From a candidate division WOR-3 bacterium (lineage in GTDB: Bacteria; Hydrothermota; Tepidihabitantia; Tepidihabitantales; Tepidihabitantaceae), in NCBI GenBank assembly GCA_965649205.1, contig CBFGJV010000006.1, forward strand, positions 41,611-105,610: a stretch of 64,000 bases of DNA, written 5' to 3'. Within the stretch, counting starts at the first letter, position 1. Every line of letters begins with the position of its first letter. The position numbers were made by a program, and so were the translations under genes. Positions 33,680 to 45,406 of this stretch are shown piece after piece. The notes below the pieces were generated by a model. It was not told the origin of the DNA, searched no databases, and saw nothing but the letters and a program-made list of their open reading frames with translations.

Positions 33680-34531
33680 ATGCGCCTTGCTGTAATAACA
33701 GCCTTTGCAGTCTGCGCCTCGGCACTGACCGTTCGAGCAAATCTCCTGGTAAATCCGGATTTTTCCGGATGGACCAATCCGAACAGACCTACAGGCTGGT
33801 TTGTGGAAGACACAACCAAAGCCAGGGTCGAACAAGCTACTAACCCGGTCCGTAGCGCTCCCTATGCGGTTAAACTGACCCGGCGTGTAGCAGGCACTGG
33901 CAACAACGCCGGTATCATACAATATGTAGCGGTATCTCCCAATCTCGACTATACGCTATCCGTATGGTTTCTGGACGACGACGTGAACGCCAGCGGCGGC
34001 TGCGGCATCAGTTGGTACACCCAAGATACTACCTTTATATCAAGTACCACCAATGCCTATACCGATTCGGCTATTCGCACCTGGCAGAAAGTAGTAAAAA
34101 CGGCCACTGCACCGGCCACTGCGGCTCTGGCTAAAGTATACTTCCGAGTGTACGGCTTCACTGGCAGCCCGGCCGGGGGAGTAGTCTATCTGGATGACGC
34201 CAGTTTTGTGCAGGGGTCAGGTGTAACAGAGGACAAATTCTACCCTGCCGCACAGACCTGTCGACTAAGAATCAGCCCCAATCCGACACCAGGCCAAACT
34301 GTAATGCAGGTAACTCTGACTCAGCGAGAACAAGTTAAACTCGCGGTATACGATCTGACTGGCAGAATCGTCTCCTCTGTTTTCTCTGGCGTCCTGAATG
34401 CGGGTTCGCATTCTTTCTCCTGGAAAGCAATTGATCTGGATAACAAACCTCTGTCTAACGGTCTTTATTTCGTGTTAATGTCAGACGCCAGCGATAAGGT
34501 TGCCGTAGCCAAGCTGCTCATCGAACGCTAG
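33680..34531 (+). CDS. Secreted protein: CBM4/9-like galactose-binding-fold domain plus T9SS/FlgD-Ig C-terminal domain
   Basis: Signal peptide; NLLVNPDF...YLDD; C-terminal PNP...VYDLTGR...GLYF. Confidence 0.75.
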   Translation: MRLAVITAFAVCASALTVRANLLVNPDFSGWTNPNRPTGWFVEDTTKARVEQATNPVRSAPYAVKLTRRVAGTGNNAGIIQYVAVSPNLDYTLSVWFLDDDVNASGGCGISWYTQDTTFISSTTNAYTDSAIRTWQKVVKTATAPATAALAKVYFRVYGFTGSPAGGVVYLDDASFVQGSGVTEDKFYPAAQTCRLRISPNPTPGQTVMQVTLTQREQVKLAVYDLTGRIVSSVFSGVLNAGSHSFSWKAIDLDNKPLSNGLYFVLMSDASDKVAVAKLLIER

Positions 34532-35884: not shown

Positions 35885-36009
35885 ATTCTACGCCTACCTG
35901 TAAATAGGCCGGTAACTTGACATCTGCTGGCGGCGGATGCTACAACAATTCAGTGCCGCTAGATGTAAGAGCAAGCCATTTACCTAATAGCCCGAAAAGA
36001 TGAGGTAGC

Positions 36010-38169
36010 TTGAACAAAGTGCTGACCGCGGTCCTGCTTACTGCTGGTGTGCTGCTAACAGCCGCACAGGGTAACCTGTTGACCAATGGCGACTTTGAAC
36101 AGCCGCTCACGGTCGGCTGGAGCCAAGAGTTTGATGATAGCCAGGGGTCATACGTAATCACCCGTGATACAACACTGCAACCAGACCCGGATTTCGAAGT
36201 GCGCATATATAAGTACTTGCGCTACTACGCCAGGTTGAAACAAACAGTAGCCGTGCCTGGTACAAACGTGCGTTTCTCTGGCGCGGCCAAACTGGTTGCC
36301 ACTAAAGGTCCGACCAGCGGTTACTATGCCTATGCTGCCATAATTCTGGAATATCAGAACGCCGGCGGAGAAGTTCTGGGCCGTACCTGGATAATGAAAA
36401 AGATAGGCGACTTCAATCCCCAGAATACCCCCACTCAGCACTACATACTGACTATAAGCGATGTTTGGGAGAACTACGGTTTTGTTCTCGCTGATGAGTT
36501 AGCCAATCTGCCAGGCATCAACCCCCGGGATATTTCCCGGGTAAGTGTCGTTGTGGAAAGCTACGGCACCGGCGCTTCAGGTTGAGGGGGATGTGAAACC
36601 ACGACGGAGGTCTCCGCCGATGACATAGCCCTCACATACCTGGGCGCTGCTCCATTTCTCACCTACCAGTCAAACACAATTATTGACCCGCCACCCGGAA
36701 GAAATAACAACGGCCGATTTGATCCGGGCGAGAGCGGCGATATACGTGTGAAAGTGAAGAATGTAGGCAACCAGGAGGCACACACTGTCACCGCAGTTCT
36801 GCGGTCAGGGCATGATCTGTTTGTCGTCACCGACTCTACCGGTAGTTTTGAAGACATACCAGCCGGTGGCAGTGCTGAGAACGATGCGGACCGGTTCTCA
36901 ATTCAAGTCAACAGCAGCATGCGTCCCGGCACGACAGTCCTCTGCACCCTCCTGCTGCACTGCGAGAACTGGGGATACGACTGGAAGTATGTTTTCACCC
37001 TCCAGGTAGGCACGGCACCGCGGCCAGGCCAATACGTGGTTACGCTAGATACCGGCTCAGTTTCGCTTTCAGTCTGTGCCATAGGCTCGCTGGGCTTCAA
37101 CGAGCCTGGCGGAACTGGTAACGGCTTCCGCGTGCCCAAGACCGTCGCCAACACTCTTTACTATGGTAGCATAATGGCTGGGAATTCAGACGCCTATCTG
37201 GTTGACCACTTCTTCTCGCGACCTGCTTCTGGTCCCACACACAAGGACTGGGCGATGGAAGAGAGCTTCAGGTTCATATTCCCCGGTTCACCGGCAGATA
37301 TGCACTGGATGAACACAATGAACGATGCAGGTCACACTTCGCCCCGCCGGCTGCGGACAGAGCAGCACTGGTATATGAATGCCAATCCCACTAATTCCAA
37401 CTGGACAGTTGTAACGCTGGAACTGAAGAACGACGGCACCAGCCCGCTGAATGAAATGTACGCCGGCATCATAGGCGATTTTGATGTTGGGTCTTCGCCT
37501 ACGACCAATATTGTCGGTTCAGATGAAACCCGGCGTGCGATCTGGATGGCACAGGCCACAAGCGAAAACCCCACAGTAGGCTTTGTTCTCCTGGACCCGC
37601 CGATGTTCGCCAACCTGACTGCGGTAGACCACGCGCGCTATGTGTATCCTGATTCGGCTATGACCGATGGTATGAAGTGGCGTCTGCTCAATGGTACCAT
37701 CTCTTTACGTCAGTCTAATCGCAGCTATGACTGGTCAGTGCTGGTCTCGGCCGGACCGTTCAACCTGCCAATTGGTTCAAGTCAGAAACTGGCCTTCGCA
37801 GTTGTAGGAGCAACAAGCCGGGCCGGCTGGTTTGCCGCGGTCGAGAGCGCGCAGAAGTGGTACGACGCTAACCTGGTAGGTGTAGAGGAAGAAAAACCGT
37901 GCCCTGCCTACATCGAACAGTCTCTGCTACTTCGGCCCAATCCTTTCTCTCGTGCCACTTACGTGTACTACTTCGCACCGACAGCATCCCGCGTATGCCT
38001 GTCCGTGTATGACATCTTGGGCCGGGAAATAGAACGAACGTATTTTGATGCTGGTGCAGGCGTAAACCGCTACGTCTGGCAACCTAAAAACGTTACTCCT
38101 GGTATCTACTTCGTGAAAGCGACCACACCAAACCACGAAACTACAGCTAGAGCTCTTCTGCTGGAATAA
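36010..38169 (+). CDS. Predicted 719-aa secreted selenoprotein (Sec192 in U-G-G-C): signal peptide, CBM-like domain, Ig-like domain, beta-sandwich region, T9SS C-terminal domain
   Basis: ORFs 36010-36585 and 36748-38169 share a frame and are separated only by TGA 36583-36585. The intervening sequence encodes VSADDIAL and NNNGRFDPGE motifs; a SECIS-like hairpin follows the TGA. Confidence 0.8.
36583..36634 (+). promoter_or_regulatory. Bacterial SECIS element (candidate)
   Basis: UGAGGG/CCCUCA and AUGU/ACAU lower stem, CG-A-CGG/CCG-C-CG upper stem, apical loop AGGUCU at 36608-36613. Confidence 0.78.
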
Positions 38170-38262: not shown

Positions 38263-40647
38263 ATGAACAAGGCAGAGATGTCTATGATGTCGGCACTAGT
38301 GCTGGCCGGAGCGGCTCTGGCGCAGCCGATTGGTGCGGACGCGGCCATCAAATGCAGAGGCGGGCGAGCCGGTGGAGTTCGCGGACGCTGTCCTGTACTC
38401 GCTGCCGGACGGCTCCCAGGTGCAGGGCACGATCACAGATAAAACTGGCAGTTTCGCCCTTACCGCGCTTCGTCCCGGACGTTACTATCTAGAGGTCTCT
38501 TTCATCGGATATCAGACGAAAACAGTGGACAATATTGAATGCGCGGAGGGAGCCAGACTGGACCTGGGTCGGCTGGAATTGCAGGCAAAGCCGGTACCGG
38601 TAGAAGGCGCGGAGGCAACAGCTACCACTCTTACCATTTCTCGCAAGCTGGACAAGATTGTGATTGACGTTACCAAACTGCTCAATGCCGGGTCGGGCAC
38701 CGCGGTGGATGCTCTGAAAAACGCGCCGTCGGTGAAGGTGAACATTGACGACAACGTCACCCTGCGCGGCAGTTCCAACTTCAAGGTACTGGTGGACGGC
38801 AGACCGAGCGAGCTGGAGCCACAGGACGCCTTGAAGCAGATTCCGGCCGCGACGATCGACAATCGGCCAGGTACGAGGCGGATGGGCCCGCGGGTATCGT
38901 CAACATACTGCTGAAGAAGCAGAAGGGTCCGGGCATCAGCGGGATGGCTAACGCCAACGCAGGTCTGAACAACCGGTATGGCACTGACCTCCTGGCCGGG
39001 TATCGTGAGGGGAAAGTCAACGTCTACGGCGGCGGCAACATCAACCGCTTCTCGTGGCTGAACCGCAGTGAGTCAAAGAGGAAGATAGTCACAGGAAGCG
39101 ATACTCTTGTTACAGCGAGCAAGGGTTCGGGCCGCGGGGGCCCGGTCTTTGGTGGCGGCCGGGCTGGTGGAGACATCGAGCTGGGGCCCAGGGATAAGGT
39201 CGGTCTGTCGTGCCGGATGCGCGGTTTTCGCACCGGCGGTGTCTGCGGTTCGGATGCAACAGAGCGTCGTCTGCCTCAAAATTCGGTCAGGCACTATACG
39301 ACCGAGGAAACCTGGCTTTGGACCGGCACAGCACTGTTCGGCATGGCCGATTACGAGCACGGGTTTGATACCAGCGGCCAGAAGTTGACCGGACGGCTCT
39401 ACCTCATCAATCGTTCCGGCGGCTCCAGCGGGTTGCGCCAGGAGATGGAAGCAAAAGATACAGTCTATGGTAGACGCAATGAGCAGGGAAGGCCGTGGCT
39501 GCGTCTTACCGGTGAACTGGGGTACGAGAAACCGGCACTGGCCGGCGGCAAGCTGGAATCGGGCTACGAAGGTAATCTGGAACGCACGTCGGACGATATG
39601 AAGCAGTGGCAGTACGATACAGCCGCGCACGCCTACGAGCCGGATACATTGTCCAATCACTCCAACTCTGGAGCAGACCAGGTGCACGCGGCGTACGCCA
39701 CATGGTCAACAGAGTGGCGCGGGCTGGGAATACAGCCCGCTCTGCGCGTGGAGTATGAGGGCCGCGCGGTCGAGGTATTGGACACGGATTCGACCTACCT
39801 GGTGAACCGATGGGACGCATTTCCCAGCCTGCACTTGTCTTACGGCCTGCCCGCGAATCAGCAAGTGAGCGCGAGCTATTCCCGTCGGGTGAACCGGCCA
39901 AGCATCTGGGAGCTGGACCCGTTCCCGAACTGGCAGGGGCCGCACAGCGTGTACCAGGGCAACCCGCTGCTTTCCCCTGAGTTCACCGATTCCTGGGAGG
40001 CCGGGTACGAGTTGTCGTTCGGACAGAACTCGGTCAACGCGGGTCTGTACTACCGTGTCACGCGCGACCTGTTTCAGTGGGTGACGATGAAGTATGCTCC
40101 GGACACGGCTGCACTCTTGACTACACCGCGCAATGTGGGACAGGACTATTCGCTGGGAGGCGAGTTCTCAGCCAATCTCAATCCGTGGAAGTGGCTGACG
40201 CTCGCGCCCAGCGCGGACCTGTACGACTATCGCGTTACCGGCAATCTGCTCGGCCAGGACTTCGCCCGTTCGAGTTTCGCCTGGAGCAGTTCCCTCAGCC
40301 TGACTCTGCGCGCACCCTTTGGCACACAGGTACAGTTGGATGGAAACTACACTGCTCCAACGGTCACGTCTCAGGGCAGAGAAGGAGGCTGGTTCGATAC
40401 CGATGTGGCGGTCAGGCAGATGTTCTTGAACCGGACATTGTCAGTTACCCTACGGATCGGACACATCTTCGGCGGTGTGCCCTGGAGAACTGAATCAGCG
40501 GGCCCGGGGTTTTCCGCCAGCTCATCCTATTTCCACGACGAAAGGGTGGTGACTCTTTCCATAAGCTACAACCTGAACAACTTCCGGCCCAACCCGAAAA
40601 TGCGCGCTGGCGAAGGCGAAGAAATGCAAGGTGGTCCGGGTCGCTGA
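38263..40647 (+). pseudogene. TonB-dependent receptor / outer-membrane beta-barrel, disrupted by two frameshifting deletions (about 38350 and 38862)
   Basis: Signal peptide (frame 1), carboxypeptidase-regulatory-like domain and plug (frame 2), then SARYEADGPAGIVNI and the barrel (frame 1). Confidence 0.8.
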
Positions 40648-40711: not shown

Positions 40712-41620
40712 TTGAGTACCAAAAGCGAATCTGTTTCGCCCCAGTCCATCCGGCCCTATGTGTACTATCCGGGCTGCACGCTCTACACCAAGGGACGGAG
40801 TCTGGACCTGTGCGCGCGCAAGGCAGCGGAGCGCGTAGGATTCAGTCTGGCTGAGATGCAGTCGTGGACCTGCTGTGGAGCGATATACAACACCAATTCA
40901 GACGATTTCGCGGCGCAGGTTGGGCCGGTGCGTAATCTGGCCAGGGCGAGTCAGGCAGGCGACAAGCTGGTTACCCTGTGTGCCGCGTGTTACAACGTGC
41001 TGAAACGGGCGAATGACAACCTGAATGCGAGGGGAAACGAGGAGACGCGGGACAGGCTGCTGGCATTCGTGGACGAAAAGTTCGAGCGGCCGGTAGAAGT
41101 GGTGCATTATCTGGATGTGCTGAAAACTGACATAGGCTGGGAGAATCTGAAGCAGAAGGTGACAAAGTCTCTGGCTGGACTGAAGGTGGCGTCCTACTAC
41201 GGCTGTCTGATGGTGCGCCCGGCCTCGGTGCTGAGCTTCGACGACCCGGACAATCCCAGCGTGATGGACGAACTGGTGTCAGCTCTAGGCGGCCAGCCGG
41301 TAGACTATGATTTCAAGACAGAATGTTGCGGCGGGTATCTGGTTACGAACCAGCGCGCCACCGCGGTGGAGTGTTCGCGCCGAGTATTGGACAACGCGGC
41401 CCAGACCGGTGCAGAGGTGGTGGTGACTACCTGTCCTCTTTGTCAGTACAACTTGGACGCGTTGCAGAAAGATATGGGCCGGGAAAGCCAGATGCCGGTT
41501 TTGTACTTCACCCAGCTTCTCGGGCTTGCAGTCGGGCTGGACGAGTCAGAGCTTGCCTTGGACTATAACCAGACAGATGCGAGGCCGCTCTTGAAGTCCA
41601 AGGGTCTGCTTACCGCGTGA
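40712..41620 (+). CDS. hdrB: Heterodisulfide reductase subunit B-like (CCG domains)
   Basis: YYPGC, WTCCG, CAAC, YYGC, ECCG and TCPLC motifs. Confidence 0.92.
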   Translation: MSTKSESVSPQSIRPYVYYPGCTLYTKGRSLDLCARKAAERVGFSLAEMQSWTCCGAIYNTNSDDFAAQVGPVRNLARASQAGDKLVTLCAACYNVLKRANDNLNARGNEETRDRLLAFVDEKFERPVEVVHYLDVLKTDIGWENLKQKVTKSLAGLKVASYYGCLMVRPASVLSFDDPDNPSVMDELVSALGGQPVDYDFKTECCGGYLVTNQRATAVECSRRVLDNAAQTGAEVVVTTCPLCQYNLDALQKDMGRESQMPVLYFTQLLGLAVGLDESELALDYNQTDARPLLKSKGLLTA

Positions 41621-41624
41621 GGTT

Positions 41625-42944
41625 GTGAGCATGGCAACCACCAGAAAGGCATTGGTCATCGGCGGCGGCATAGCGGGCATTCAGGCGGCTCTGGACATAG
41701 CCAACGCAGGAGTAGAGGTAGTGCTGGTGGAACGCAAGTCATCTATCGGCGGGCATATGGCGCAGTTGTCCGAGACTTTCCCCACCCTGGACTGCTCGCA
41801 GTGCATCCTCACGCCGAAGATGGTGGACGCGGCTCAGCACCCGCGCATCAGGCTGATGACCTACTCCGAAGTGGAATCGGTCAGCGGCTCGACCGGCGAT
41901 TTCCAGGTACGGATCAGGCAGAAGGCCAAATATGTGGACTGGGATGTATGCAACGGTTGCGGCCTGTGTATGACCAAGTGTCCGGGCAGGACAGAGTCTG
42001 AGTTCAATGAGGGACTGGAGAAACGCACGGCGATACACAGGCTATTCCCTCAAGCAGTACCGAACAAACCGGTCATAGATCGCAACTCGTGCATCTATCT
42101 GCAGAAGGGCAAATGTCGGGTATGCGAGAAAATCTGCCCGCCCCAGGCAATAAGGTTCGAGGACCAGGACCGGCTAGTTCAAGAAAACGTTGGCGCTATC
42201 GTAGTAGCTACCGGATTTGAGCTGCTTCACCTTAAAACTTATGGTTCCTACGGACTGGAACGGCATCCGGACGTTCTCACCGGTCTGGAGTTTGAGCGGC
42301 TGCTATCAGCGTCCGGCCCGACCAAGGGAGAAGTGAAGCGACCTTCGGACGGCAAGGAACCCAAACGTGTTGTGTTTGTGAAGTGCGCGGGCTCAAGAGA
42401 CAGGGAACGGGGCGTACCATACTGCTCCAAGGTGTGCTGCATGTACTCGGCCAAGCACGCGCTTCTGTACAAGCACCGGGTGCACGACGGCGAGGCCATC
42501 ATTTTCTACATTGACGTGAGGACAGCGGGTAAGGACTTTGAGGAGTTCTACAAGCGGGCAACAGACGAGGGTGTTATCTATGTGCGCGGCAAAGTGTCCA
42601 AAATTTTCCGCCGGGGCGACAAGATGGTGGTATGGGGTTCGGATACGGTCGCAGGCCGGAAAATGGAAGTGGAAGCTGATTTGGTGGTATTGGCCACAGC
42701 GATGATTCCAGATTCCCATGCCAGCTCGATAGCAGATATGCTGGGTATCCAAGTAGATCAGTATGGATTCTTCACTGAAGCGCAGTACAAACTGAAACCG
42801 GTAGAAACAAACCGGCCAGGCATATTCCTAGCTGGCGCTTGCCAAGGGCCGAAGGATATTCCAGAAACAGTAGCTCAGGGCTCAGCCGCTGCAAGCAAGG
42901 TTCTGGAGCTTCTGGCACAAAGACAGGAGGAGAAGCGTGGCTAA
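41625..42944 (+). CDS. hdrA: Short heterodisulfide reductase subunit A-like flavoprotein
   Basis: GGGIAG, TFPTLDCSQC, inserted ferredoxin, CAGSRD...YCSKVCC and GACQGPKDI motifs. Confidence 0.92.
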   Translation: MSMATTRKALVIGGGIAGIQAALDIANAGVEVVLVERKSSIGGHMAQLSETFPTLDCSQCILTPKMVDAAQHPRIRLMTYSEVESVSGSTGDFQVRIRQKAKYVDWDVCNGCGLCMTKCPGRTESEFNEGLEKRTAIHRLFPQAVPNKPVIDRNSCIYLQKGKCRVCEKICPPQAIRFEDQDRLVQENVGAIVVATGFELLHLKTYGSYGLERHPDVLTGLEFERLLSASGPTKGEVKRPSDGKEPKRVVFVKCAGSRDRERGVPYCSKVCCMYSAKHALLYKHRVHDGEAIIFYIDVRTAGKDFEEFYKRATDEGVIYVRGKVSKIFRRGDKMVVWGSDTVAGRKMEVEADLVVLATAMIPDSHASSIADMLGIQVDQYGFFTEAQYKLKPVETNRPGIFLAGACQGPKDIPETVAQGSAAASKVLELLAQRQEEKRG

Positions 42945-43926
42945 GCCGAGGTTCGGATTTTACTGGGCGGCGTCGTGCGGCGGATGCGAAATTTCAGTAT
43001 TGGACACGAACGAAAAGCTTCTGGACATTGCGGCCAGGGCTGAAATCCTGCTCTGGCCAGTGGCAATGGATACCAAAAAGGCGGATGTGGAGAAGATGCC
43101 GGACAAGCACCTAGACACAGTGTTCTTCAATGGTTCGGTGCGTAACTCAGAGCAGGAGGAATGGGCGCACCTGCTTCGGCGCAAGGCTAAGACACTGGTG
43201 GCGTTCGGATCCTGCGCGCATCACGGCTGCATCCCCGGACTGGCCAACCTCTATAGCCGAGAGGAAATCTTCCGCACTATTTATCGCAACGAACCCTCGC
43301 TCGACGAATCAAGGGGAATCGAACCGAAGACAAAAGTTACAGTAGCGGAGGGAGAGTTGACCCTGCCGGAGTTCTTTGACCTGGTTAGACCGCTGGACCA
43401 GGTAGTGGAAGTTGACTATTATCTCCCGGGGTGTCCACCGCCAGTACCGATTGTCCTAAAAGCGATGGACACAATAATATCCGGTAGTCTGCCGGCAAAA
43501 GGCACTGTGCTTGCGCCGACCAAAGCGTTGTGCGACGAGTGCTCGCGGAACGAAAGTCTGCCTAAGAAGATGCCGGACGTGAAACGTACCTGGGAAGTGC
43601 AGGCAGACCCCAAGGTGTGCTTTCTGCGGCAGGGCATCATCTGTATGGGCCCGGCTACGCGCTCCGGGTGCGAGCAACGTTGTATCAACGGCAACTGGCC
43701 CTGTACCGGTTGTATGGGCCCGGTTCCGGAGGTGAAAGACCAGGGCGCAAAGATGATTTCCGCCCTGGGTGCAATACTCGCTTTAGACGAGGAAGCAAAA
43801 CTCACTGAAGACCAGACCAAAGCTCTGATAGCGAAAGTCAAAGATCCGGTAGGCACGTTCTATATGTACGGCTTGGCCAGTGCAACCATAAACAAAAGAC
43901 AACGGAAAGAGTCTGCTGGAGCTTAG
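42937..43926 (+). CDS. mvhG: [NiFe]-hydrogenase small subunit, MvhG-like
   Basis: SCGGC, FGSCA, PGCPP and CMGPATRSGC...PCTGC motifs. Confidence 0.9.
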   Translation: MAKPRFGFYWAASCGGCEISVLDTNEKLLDIAARAEILLWPVAMDTKKADVEKMPDKHLDTVFFNGSVRNSEQEEWAHLLRRKAKTLVAFGSCAHHGCIPGLANLYSREEIFRTIYRNEPSLDESRGIEPKTKVTVAEGELTLPEFFDLVRPLDQVVEVDYYLPGCPPPVPIVLKAMDTIISGSLPAKGTVLAPTKALCDECSRNESLPKKMPDVKRTWEVQADPKVCFLRQGIICMGPATRSGCEQRCINGNWPCTGCMGPVPEVKDQGAKMISALGAILALDEEAKLTEDQTKALIAKVKDPVGTFYMYGLASATINKRQRKESAGA

Positions 43927-43927
43927 T

Positions 43928-45406
43928 ATGGACAGACGCATAACTGTTGACCCGATTACACGACTGGAAGGACATGGAAAGATAGAAATCTTTTTGGACG
44001 AGCACGGCGAGGTAGACAACGCCTATCTCCAAGTTCCTGAACTACGTGGTTTCGAGCAGTTCTGCGTGGGCAGGAAGGCTGAAGATATGCCCCAGCTTAC
44101 CTCACGCATCTGTGGTGTCTGTCCGGTCGCCCACCACTACGCTGCTACCAAGGCACTGGATATGGCCTTTGGCGTAGAACCAACCGCAACCGCAAGGAAG
44201 CTGCGCGAGCTCATCTACGCCGGTTATATCATCTATGATCACATTTTGCACTTCTACTTTCTGGCCGGGCCGGATTTTGTGTTAGGACCGGACGCACCCA
44301 AGGAAAAGCGGAATATCCTCGGTGTTATAGAAAAAGTAGGACTGGATGTGGCAAGAGAAGTAATTAAGCACCGAGCCTATGGTCAGAAGATAACAGAGAT
44401 TCTCGGGGGCAAACCAACCCATCCTGTGTCGGGCGTTCCCGGAGGCCAGACCAAATCACTAGACGAAGATGGACGGAAGCAAATAGAAGAAATGGCGAAG
44501 TCCTGCGTAGCATTCGCTGAATTCAGTTTGGAGCTTTTCCGCAAGACGGTATTGGAAAACAAACAGTATATGAACCTTGTCACTGACCCCCGTTTCAGTC
44601 TCAAACTGTACAATATGGGTCTTGTAGACGAGAAGAACCGGGTGAACTTCTACGACGGCAAAGTACGCGTAACTACCCCAAACGGTGAGGAGTACCTCAA
44701 ATTTGAGTTAAAGGATTACCTGAAGCATATCCGGGAACACGTTCTGGAATGGAGCTATGTGAAGGTACCTTACCTTGCGGCAATTGGCTACAGGGGACTC
44801 ACTGATGGCCCGGAATCTGGCATCTATCGTGTAGGACCTCTAGCTCGCTTGAATGCGGCCGAAGGAATGGCAACACCCAAAGCAGATGCTGCATACCGAG
44901 AAATGTACAACACTTTCGGCACCAAACCGGTACACTCTACGCTTGCATTCCACTGGGCTAGGCTTATAGAATTGCTCTACGCTTCCGAACTAGCGCTTGC
45001 ACTTGCCTCGGACACCAACATCACCGGAACAGACATCCGCAATATGGACTACAAGATGCAGGAGCAGGGCATCGGCGTGGTAGAGGCGGCGCGGGGAACT
45101 CTGTTCCATCACTACTGGCTGGATGAAAACAGATTGGTGAAGAAAGTGAATCTGATTGTGGCCTCAACCAACAATATGGGCCCGATCTGTATGTCAGTCC
45201 GAGACGCAGCAAGGAGTCTAATCCACGCCGGCAAGGCAGACGACGGACTGTTGAATACGGTAGAAATGTTCTTCCGTGCCTACGACCCGTGCTTTGCCTG
45301 TGCTAGCCACACCCTCGGAAGCGCACCGCTGGAAGTCAACCTGCGCCTCTCAGATGGCACATTACTAGAGACCCTGACAAACCAATCCAACCGGGATACA
45401 CATTAA
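43928..45406 (+). CDS. mvhA: [NiFe]-hydrogenase large subunit, group 3c MvhA-like
   Basis: TRLEGHG, RICGVC (L1) and [12 protein letters not shown] (L2) with a cleavable C-terminal extension. Confidence 0.93.

Follow-up and report, generated by a model that had tools for sequence, protein, structure and literature searches.

A Predicted Selenoprotein Family with a Carbohydrate-Binding-Module-Like Head in Candidate Division WOR-3

The Gene and Its Reading Frame

The gene described here lies in a stretch of 64,000 nucleotides (the window; contig CBFGJV010000006.1, positions 41,611 to 105,610 of the forward strand) from the genome of a candidate division WOR-3 bacterium (assembly GCA_965649205.1; 2.15 Mb, 98% complete). 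Within the window, two open reading frames (ORFs) of 191 amino acids (36010–36585) and 473 amino acids (36748–38169) lie on the forward strand, as do all features of the gene given below. As stated in a preliminary description made from the letters of this DNA alone, the two ORFs share one frame, with an offset of 738 nucleotides. A single TGA (36583–36585) is the sole stop inside a frame of 719 codons, which, if that UGA is read as selenocysteine (Sec, U), runs from a TTG start codon at 36010 to a TAA stop codon (36010–38169), as judged from frame analysis and from homologues. The sequence that had been given for the read-through product around residue 192 is also correct, and a cysteine at residue 195 (36592–36594) creates a UxxC motif in this copy. 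This gene, split by gene callers, almost certainly encodes selenocysteine at the UGA, judging from comparison of sequences, and thereby one protein of 719 residues.

Conservation of the UGA Codon

With residues 1–215 as the query, 147 matches were obtained in 53 of 61 genomes, and according to a table count, 136 of these 147 have exactly one TGA. The 11 exceptions comprise five that stop far short of the site, four of almost full length in which the match contains no TGA, one that carries a TAG, and one with both TGA and TAA. A profile of 72 domains, built mostly from copies with a TGA, was run on 242 genomes of the phylum and gave 246 matches in 98 of them; all of the best 150 of the 246 have one TGA. 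A genome can hold up to nine of these N-terminal domains, here called heads. The position of the codon within the domain was compared in 75 copies cut out of 71 loci, namely the top match of each genome and 40 selected regions, among them the near-full-length exceptions: in 70 of the 75, the TGA is in the same turn, which precedes the last strand. In a second set, which came mostly from more distant families and included 22 new copies, the TGA is at this turn in 24 of 24 copies. Residue 192 is the predicted Sec in this turn.

Public protein sets hold the family almost only as fragments ending at the Sec site: 224 of 259 domain matches (in 256 proteins) end there, 23 span the site, and the remaining 12 are fragments of other kinds or partial matches. 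The database names for the homologues read “candidate division WOR-3.” Three of the 23 site-spanning domains (P0112, P0167, and P0036) have Cys at the Sec-equivalent offset, as placed by the distance from the last strand, and in the homologue P0120, Ala replaces Sec with two Cys retained in the turn. Relatives with either TGA or Cys aligned at residue 192 and with a kept hairpin (see below), for which the preliminary description had suggested looking, were both found, and the comparison did not show Trp, Arg, or Gly at this site with no conserved hairpin. A wider genome search, covering 26 of 64 parts, gave at least eight true relatives and at least ten weak N-terminal matches in other phyla.

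Three single cases were recorded in passing. At one locus (L056, G060:C8), the TGA lies 41 nucleotides ahead of a lost hairpin, in a longer turn, and is either a shifted Sec or a stop. Another (L057, G023:C4) is a broken copy with a TAG, the middle part of which is gone. P0119 is a kelch-repeat protein of 2727 amino acids, labelled as from a Thermoplasmata archaeon, which has three copies of the head fold, with a turn that has neither Sec nor Cys.

The RNA Hairpin Following the UGA

The RNA at 36602–36619 is predicted to form the upper stem-loop of a bacterial selenocysteine insertion sequence (bSECIS), with a GGUC loop (36609–36612) situated 23 nucleotides past the UGA; the assignment draws on pair probabilities of 0.85–0.97, on covariation, and on likeness to the fdhF gene of Escherichia coli. 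The loop is closed by an A–U pair and is carried by a top stem of 4 base pairs (bp), followed by a bulge and then by 2 bp. When the RNA downstream of the UGA was folded, the structure drawn in the preliminary description was recovered as the minimum-energy fold (−18.7 kcal/mol). Its upper stem was retained; its long lower helices were rejected as part of the signal, as the RNAalifold consensus has the same five-pair stem and nothing beneath it. The apical loop, given earlier as AGGUCU at 22 nucleotides, is better described as GGUC closed by A–U at 23 nucleotides.

Over the family as a whole, the loop is 17–26 nucleotides from the UGA. In the first set (n = 70), a four-base loop lies 17, 20, or 23 nucleotides past the TGA on a stem of 4–8 bp, and this loop is GGUC in 65 copies, AGUU in four, and GGUU in one. 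The second set has a stem of 5–9 bp at 20 or 26 nucleotides in 24 of 24 copies. As a measure of chance, a hairpin of the same kind stands behind 261 of the 59,183 TGA triplets in the genome (0.4%). A scan of the genome for AGGUCU after TGA gave 289 matches and was uninformative.

The pairs 28:37, 29:36, and 30:35 of the alignment are formed in 70 of 70 rows, with 13, 32, and 12 two-sided changes, respectively. The covariation score of 0.356 was reached by none of 500 shuffles, and sliding the partners against each other as a control lowered the pairing from 90% to 25–59%; shuffle tests overstate the case for related sequences, whereas relatedness is preserved in the slid control and in the repeated changes. 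The compensatory swaps alter the protein, the stem encoding E-V-S, K-V-F, R-V-L, or Q-V-C, and these amino acid states changed at least 11 times on a tree of 88 domains. Five of the 75 copies have no TGA at the site: four of these have lost the stem (0–2 bp), and the fifth, the Cys form, still has 5 bp, wobble pairs included. On this comparative evidence, it appears that the hairpin is selected as RNA, and the family illustrates with unusual clarity how an RNA signal can dictate protein sequence (E-V-S in some members, K-V-F or R-V-L in others).

In the bSECIS model set out in PMC13188914, the loop has 3–9 nucleotides with a G in the first two places, the stem has 4–16 bp, the spacing is 16–37 nucleotides, and the energy is −7.5 kcal/mol or lower. 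The element in the window satisfies all four terms of that model as set out there (loop, stem, spacing, and energy), and the spacings of 17–26 nucleotides seen over the family also fall inside its range. No Rfam SECIS family matched 36500–36700 at E values up to 10, and four matches were far below the gathering scores. Likewise, in the fdhF gene of E. coli (NC_000913.3), a short stem lies behind an in-frame UGA and carries a GGUC loop with an A–U closing pair. The two differ in spacing (23 nucleotides in the window gene, 18 in fdhF), in that only an upper stem of 4–9 bp is conserved in the present family, and in the protein itself, which is unrelated to formate dehydrogenase.

The Selenocysteine Machinery

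The recoding of UGA as Sec is textbook biology. The genes that had been proposed for checking, selA, selB, selC, and selD, are all in the genome, above cut-offs, so a lack of selABC was not what was found in this nearly complete assembly, and tRNA-SeC(tca) is the only UCA-anticodon tRNA found there. The selD gene itself has one in-frame TGA. The hairpin behind this UGA (L017, G000:C7:46369, forward strand) has the loop AGUUG, not GGUC; therefore, the SelB of the host must accept more than one loop type.

The distribution of the domain was compared with that of SelB in 242 genomes of the phylum, each at least 80% complete. A strong domain match is present in 95 genomes and SelB, over its cut-off, in 112; both are present in 94 genomes, SelB only in 18, and the domain only in one (G191, 87% complete). 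SelB is thus found in 94 of 95 domain-bearing genomes and the domain in one of 130 SelB-negative genomes, three weak matches in SelB-negative genomes being excluded from the 95. Within the families that bear the domain, four of five SelB-negative genomes have no copy of it (G014, G039, G187, and G199; 91–98% complete). This distribution suggests that in SelB-negative lineages the gene was lost, not converted to a Cys form. Head genes are situated within 10 kb of selB in five genomes: G050 (L161), G052 (L162), G163 (L151), G181 (L159), and G193 (L160). In G050, two head genes follow selB on the same strand, and clusters of head genes were seen in G192 (three copies) and G196 (two copies).

A similar interruption would arise from a nonsense mutation or an assembly error, or if TGA were a sense codon in a changed genetic code. 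This reading draws on a TGA known from assembled sequence and on the window's own hairpin, which by itself is weak and energetically unremarkable (z −1.9, with 8 of 200 shuffles equally good). It was rejected on the comparative data and is extremely improbable: the same TGA is present in well over a hundred diverged homologues, and the hairpin has changed in a compensatory manner. As for the code, TGA is a normal stop in this genome, where it terminates 190 of 505 frames of more than 450 codons, and the sole tRNA with a UCA anticodon is that for Sec. By established Sec biology, SelB with Sec-tRNA would bind the GGUC loop, and Sec would, with little room for doubt, be inserted at residue 192.

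The Head Domain and Its Partner Cysteines

The Sec-bearing head (residues 21–211; 36070–36642) is predicted to be a jelly-roll β-sandwich of the kind found in carbohydrate-binding modules (CBMs). In the AlphaFold2 model, for which Cys stood in for Sec, it is an all-β sandwich with a mean predicted local distance difference test score (pLDDT) of 97.5. Residue 192 lies in the turn preceding the last and longest strand (predicted residues 197–210), which is encoded past the TGA. The model thus bears out two earlier claims: that the strand closing the N-terminal domain lies beyond the TGA and that the fold is carbohydrate-binding-like. The best match by VIA-align was the C-terminal domain of the tailspike 5w6h (Z 15.3, root-mean-square deviation (rmsd) 2.4, 144 residues aligned), with a porphyran-binding CBM (Z 13.8, rmsd 2.4, 132 aligned) and CBM16 (Z 13.0, rmsd 3.0, 138 aligned) also matched, and Foldseek matched the head to CBM61. 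The β-sandwich CBMs (CBM4/9, CBM16, CBM61, CBM70-type, and tailspike CBM-like domains) are thus alike in fold (Z 11–15, rmsd 2.3–4.0), but the head has only 9–20% identity to them and carries Sec and Cys in its loops. Matches in sequence are slight: PF02018 was matched weakly by 5 of 72 members (best E 3e-4) and not by the copy in the window, and the head matched the CBM of 5x7o at E 2e-4. Among the members searched, no model in Pfam or NCBIfam covers the head family. The gene at 33680 in the window, previously called a paralog, is a relative but a distant one (hhalign probability 65%, E 6e-5), and its turn has neither Sec nor Cys.

Cys195 is the likely partner of Sec192. The UxxC motif emphasized in the preliminary description is real in the window copy and its own subfamily but had to be rejected as a family motif: Cys is at +3 in 6 of 70 Sec copies, and other turns read GUG, TUG, CU, or CUxxHC. 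A candidate partner Cys is nevertheless present in 80 of 84 Sec domains, either in the loop after strand 5 (49 domains) or in the Sec turn (31 domains). In this first set (n = 84), no copy has both types, and 7 of the 31 Sec-turn copies have an extra Cys in a third loop; a strict mutual exclusion of the two types was discarded, as 3 of the 24 second-set copies hold both. In the standard jelly-roll topology, the strand-5 loop and the Sec-turn loop are neighbours at the same end of the sandwich, and some CBMs bind their ligand at the loop end. The partner Cys is the best clue to the role of selenium. Compared with thioredoxin-fold UxxC selenoproteins, the head, modelled as an all-β jelly roll, lacks both the thioredoxin fold and a conserved UxxC.

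Such a pair could have a structural job, in a protein that acts as a surface adhesin or lectin and whose ligand-binding loops are stapled together by a Se–S bond. Having a lower reduction potential, such a bond would remain closed under reducing, sulfidic conditions that open a disulfide. A staple would account for a partner Cys that is nearly always present at varying positions (80 of 84), for the lack of a visible catalytic domain, and for P0120, with its two Cys in the turn and Ala for Sec. It is somewhat unlikely, since a staple could be built from Cys, yet clear Cys forms are rare (the three among 23 site-spanning domains), SelB-negative genomes mostly have no gene instead of a Cys form, and 4 of the 84 copies have no candidate partner.

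The variety of the turns also bears on a quite unlikely reading, in which the selenolate and nearby Cys or His residues bind soft metals or metalloids (Cu, Hg, As), or in which the protein is a surface store of selenium. The CU, CUxxHC, and UxxC turns resemble the CU/UxxC motifs of the metal-linked SaoL, HgcA, and MbdU, as described in PMC13188914, but the set of ligands varies between subfamilies, and the neighbours of the gene in the window are not metal-resistance genes. The presence of up to nine copies per genome and of genes within 10 kb of selB in five genomes would suit a metal site or a store; one Sec per 200–1700 residues, however, makes a poor store.

Body, Tail, and Export

Beyond the head, the read-through protein has two further β domains and a tail. 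The first, an all-β domain opening with NNNGRFDPGE (approximately residues 215–334; 36652–37011), may be immunoglobulin-like, going by the secondary structure of the model. The second (approximately residues 336–624; 37015–37881) is a β-supersandwich plus a helix. The model of residues 215–628 (pLDDT 92.6) has the small β domain followed by the supersandwich, which VIA-align matched to residues 19–258 of 1ulv (Z 20.5, rmsd 3.0, 232 aligned) and to 1lf6 (Z 20.4, rmsd 2.8, 228 aligned). The body is thus like the N-terminal domain of glucoamylase/glucodextranase and of GH94 phosphorylases, but their catalytic barrel is missing here. A sequence search of the PDB with the body gave matches to the sorting tail only. 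The NNNGRFDPGE-type motif recurs in 11 places in the genome, and the match drawn earlier to NNDAVLNENE in the C25 protein of the window is a loose one, which the pattern missed.

The tail (residues 643 to approximately 713; 37936–38148) is a C-terminal sorting domain of the type IX secretion system (T9SS), type A, as had been claimed for the downstream ORF: it scores 34.3 bits on TIGR04183 (cut-off 23) and 24.5 bits on PF18962, which is under the cut-off of 27. The genome has SprA and seven PorV-family genes over cut-off, together with 111 sorting-domain matches. At the other end of the gene, a Shine–Dalgarno-like GAGGT (36002–36006), the function of which is presumed, precedes the TTG start, and the N-terminus (approximately residues 1–20; 36010–36069) resembles a signal peptide, as do those of homologues. 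Of the start and end signals assigned in the preliminary description, the GAGGT and the tail hold, the latter by its score, and the N-terminus is a hydrophobic stretch as judged by eye. The protein is like T9SS type A cargo in its sorting domain over cut-off and the SprA and PorV of its genome, and perhaps in its signal-like N-terminus, and differs from such cargo in its WOR-3-like host and in that its export would depend on Sec decoding. With read-through, translation would continue into the final strand of the head, the two further β domains, and the sorting tail; the chain would then probably be taken over the inner membrane by its signal peptide and directed by its tail through a SprA/PorV translocon. 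The gene directly after the selenoprotein gene (38330–40647, forward strand) is like that of a TonB-dependent receptor and is in pieces.

Relatives of approximately 700 amino acids have a DUF4082/lectin-like head on the same body, which fits a swappable ligand-binding head. In architecture, 56 of 88 domains have a long body, 24 have a short extension the size of a tail, and eight are stand-alone; with fewer than 20 residues past the domain, these have no space for a tail, but the UGA and the hairpin are kept in them. These architectures bear on the idea, raised in the preliminary description, of a selenium switch between a shortened periplasmic form and an exported form of full length, here taken as the main reason for which the UGA would be kept. 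It is true that the sequence continues past the head in 80 of the 88 domains, mostly to a tail-like segment, and that export would need read-through. A switch is very unlikely as the reason for the kept codon, because the eight stand-alone domains retain the UGA and because termination there strips off the last and longest strand and would probably leave the truncated chain unable to fold. It is the residue, moreover, and not the stop, to which the Cys homologues and the pattern of partner Cys point.

A Possible Role for Selenium

The role favoured here is that of a reactive Sec–Cys site on a surface ligand-binding head, to which we give an even chance. Sec192 and Cys195 could, with about equal probability either way, switch back and forth, at the loop end of the sandwich, between a selenenylsulfide and a selenol/thiol; the head would thereby exchange with, reduce, or covalently hold sulfur-containing or oxidised ligands outside the cell, and in other members of the family, the partner would be a Cys from the same turn or from the neighbouring loop. 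A reactive selenenylsulfide/selenolthiol site is put first because, where SelB is missing from a lineage, the gene is mostly absent too and not present in a Cys form. As to the earlier picture of a Sec–Cys pair in a loop of an exported CBM-like protein, the UGA, the fold, and the tail have been upheld by comparison, and the UxxC arrangement has been reduced to a trait of one subfamily.

Several points weigh against this reading. The chemistry of the selenium is deduced from sequence, no catalytic domain was recognisable in the protein by structural comparison, and a shared CBM fold is no proof of sugar binding. Six homologues (P0162, P0144, P0201, P0210, P0227, and P0246) have neither Sec nor Cys; therefore, the fold can work without the site. 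Four of the 84 Sec domains have neither type of partner Cys, and both types occur together in 3 of 24 second-set copies. The 49 loop-Cys copies fall into a single clade with weak support, and the tree has only approximately four changes of Cys state; therefore, the partner pattern represents few independent events. The closeness of Sec to the Cys of the strand-5 loop is presumed from the usual jelly-roll topology. The co-occurrence of the domain with SelB largely follows lineage, and GldM was not found in the genome, by a search that had no positive control (no control genome matched).

Other Candidates in the Genome

A second copy of the head is encoded at G000:C13:2800-3399 on the reverse strand (L052); it is 48% identical and has UxxC, a 7-bp hairpin with GGUC, and a sorting tail. 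Two further families of T9SS cargo with a conserved UGA and a hairpin are also encoded in the genome. One is an FG-GAP repeat protein (L164, G000:C22:18849-20057, TGA 19131) with a T9SS tail and its TGA within a G/S-U-C motif; a search of 41 genomes gave one TGA in 27 of 28 matches and a hairpin in the 12 loci folded. The other (L165, G000:C4:64562-65566, TGA 64850) encodes a protein that belongs to no known family and has a signal peptide, a T9SS-like tail, and C-U-x4-C, for which one TGA was present in 13 of 14 matches, and again a hairpin in the 12 loci folded. From their sequences, these are candidates for a second and a third exported selenoprotein family.

Three further loci were noted. 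L167 (G000:C16, TGA 18999, forward strand) has a ResA/TlpA-like thioredoxin domain, UxxC, and a selD-like hairpin, and is likely a known type of selenoprotein. L166 (G000:C8, TGA 78876, reverse strand) is lipoprotein-like with T-U-x-x-C; its match to Omp28 is weak (E 1e-4, under the cut-off), and no NCBIfam model matched it. L168 (G000:C21, TGA 8434, forward strand) is flavodoxin/HemG-like; its in-frame TGA, which a strong hairpin accompanies, is either a candidate for Sec or a nonsense mutation. A scan by dicodon score picked up the paralogue together with other candidates, but not selD or the site in the window itself, and thus gives only part of the selenoproteome.

Classic Sec enzymes were checked in a defined set, i.e., HdrA, the hydrogenase large subunit, the MvhD-type genes, and FdhA, which is likewise a part of the selenoproteome. 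The Hdr/hydrogenase cluster in the window (40712–45406, forward strand) encodes HdrA and a hydrogenase large subunit with Cys motifs, at positions that hold Sec in some organisms. The three MvhD-type genes have no internal stop, and FdhA had no match over the cut-off in the genome. That the classic enzymes checked are not Sec forms supports the reading that much of the Sec of this lineage goes into exported proteins.

Relation to Known Selenoproteins and Implications

Most of the bacterial selenoproteins known so far are redox enzymes whose folds are thioredoxin-like or built around a metal cofactor. Novelty was judged against the catalogue of PMC13188914, the Table 1 of which lists 119 families and subfamilies; in the part of that source available, no entry of Table 1 names a CBM, a jelly-roll fold, or a T9SS sorting domain, and the terms “carbohydrate,” “T9SS,” “secret,” and “sorting” do not occur in the text. 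The family table of BSepDB (Table S2 of PMC13326102) could bear on this. The catalogued proteins are alike in having a single Sec, usually a Cys close by, and rare Cys homologues, and some are exported; the present family differs from them in having no fixed Sec motif. Envelope-linked selenoproteins in the catalogue include the Omp28-related GOS_C (NF045500), a TonB-dependent receptor of FCYXU type, the SaoB/SaoX binding proteins, and ExtKL (PMC13188914); therefore, export alone is not new. None of the 72 members matched an NCBIfam selenoprotein model at E 0.1. A literature search, which covered few subscription journals, gave nothing on selenoproteins or type IX secretion in WOR-3, nor on a CBM-like or T9SS-exported selenoprotein family of this kind, and the available part of PMC9012183 does not describe the head family. 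The preliminary description had called this an unrecognised class of selenoprotein, and no catalogue, Pfam, or NCBIfam entry fits it. What is new is the fold, the location, and the absence of a fixed motif, in a family that is not in the catalogue checked.

The gene in the window is a well-supported selenoprotein gene, by the sequence comparisons given above, of a large, uncatalogued WOR-3 family with a putative function. Sec is here in the fold of a binding module that is apparently extracellular, and the family is present in 94 of the 112 SelB-positive genomes of the phylum. Three statements can be made together, as a tentative suggestion only: that the Sec of WOR-3 bacteria may be found largely in a surface selenoproteome exported by a T9-like route, not in classic cytoplasmic redox enzymes; that the CBM-like head may be a selenium-armed module on varied bodies, which reacts with or captures sulfur-bearing extracellular ligands; and that at least two more, unrelated exported folds may have gained Sec in the same lineage. 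The SECIS loop is the same as in E. coli fdhF, so E. coli can probably produce the protein with Sec, which makes the question testable although the host is uncultured. The Sec form, the Cys form, and the form with neither, all of one domain of 190 residues, offer a natural test of what selenium does beyond sulfur.

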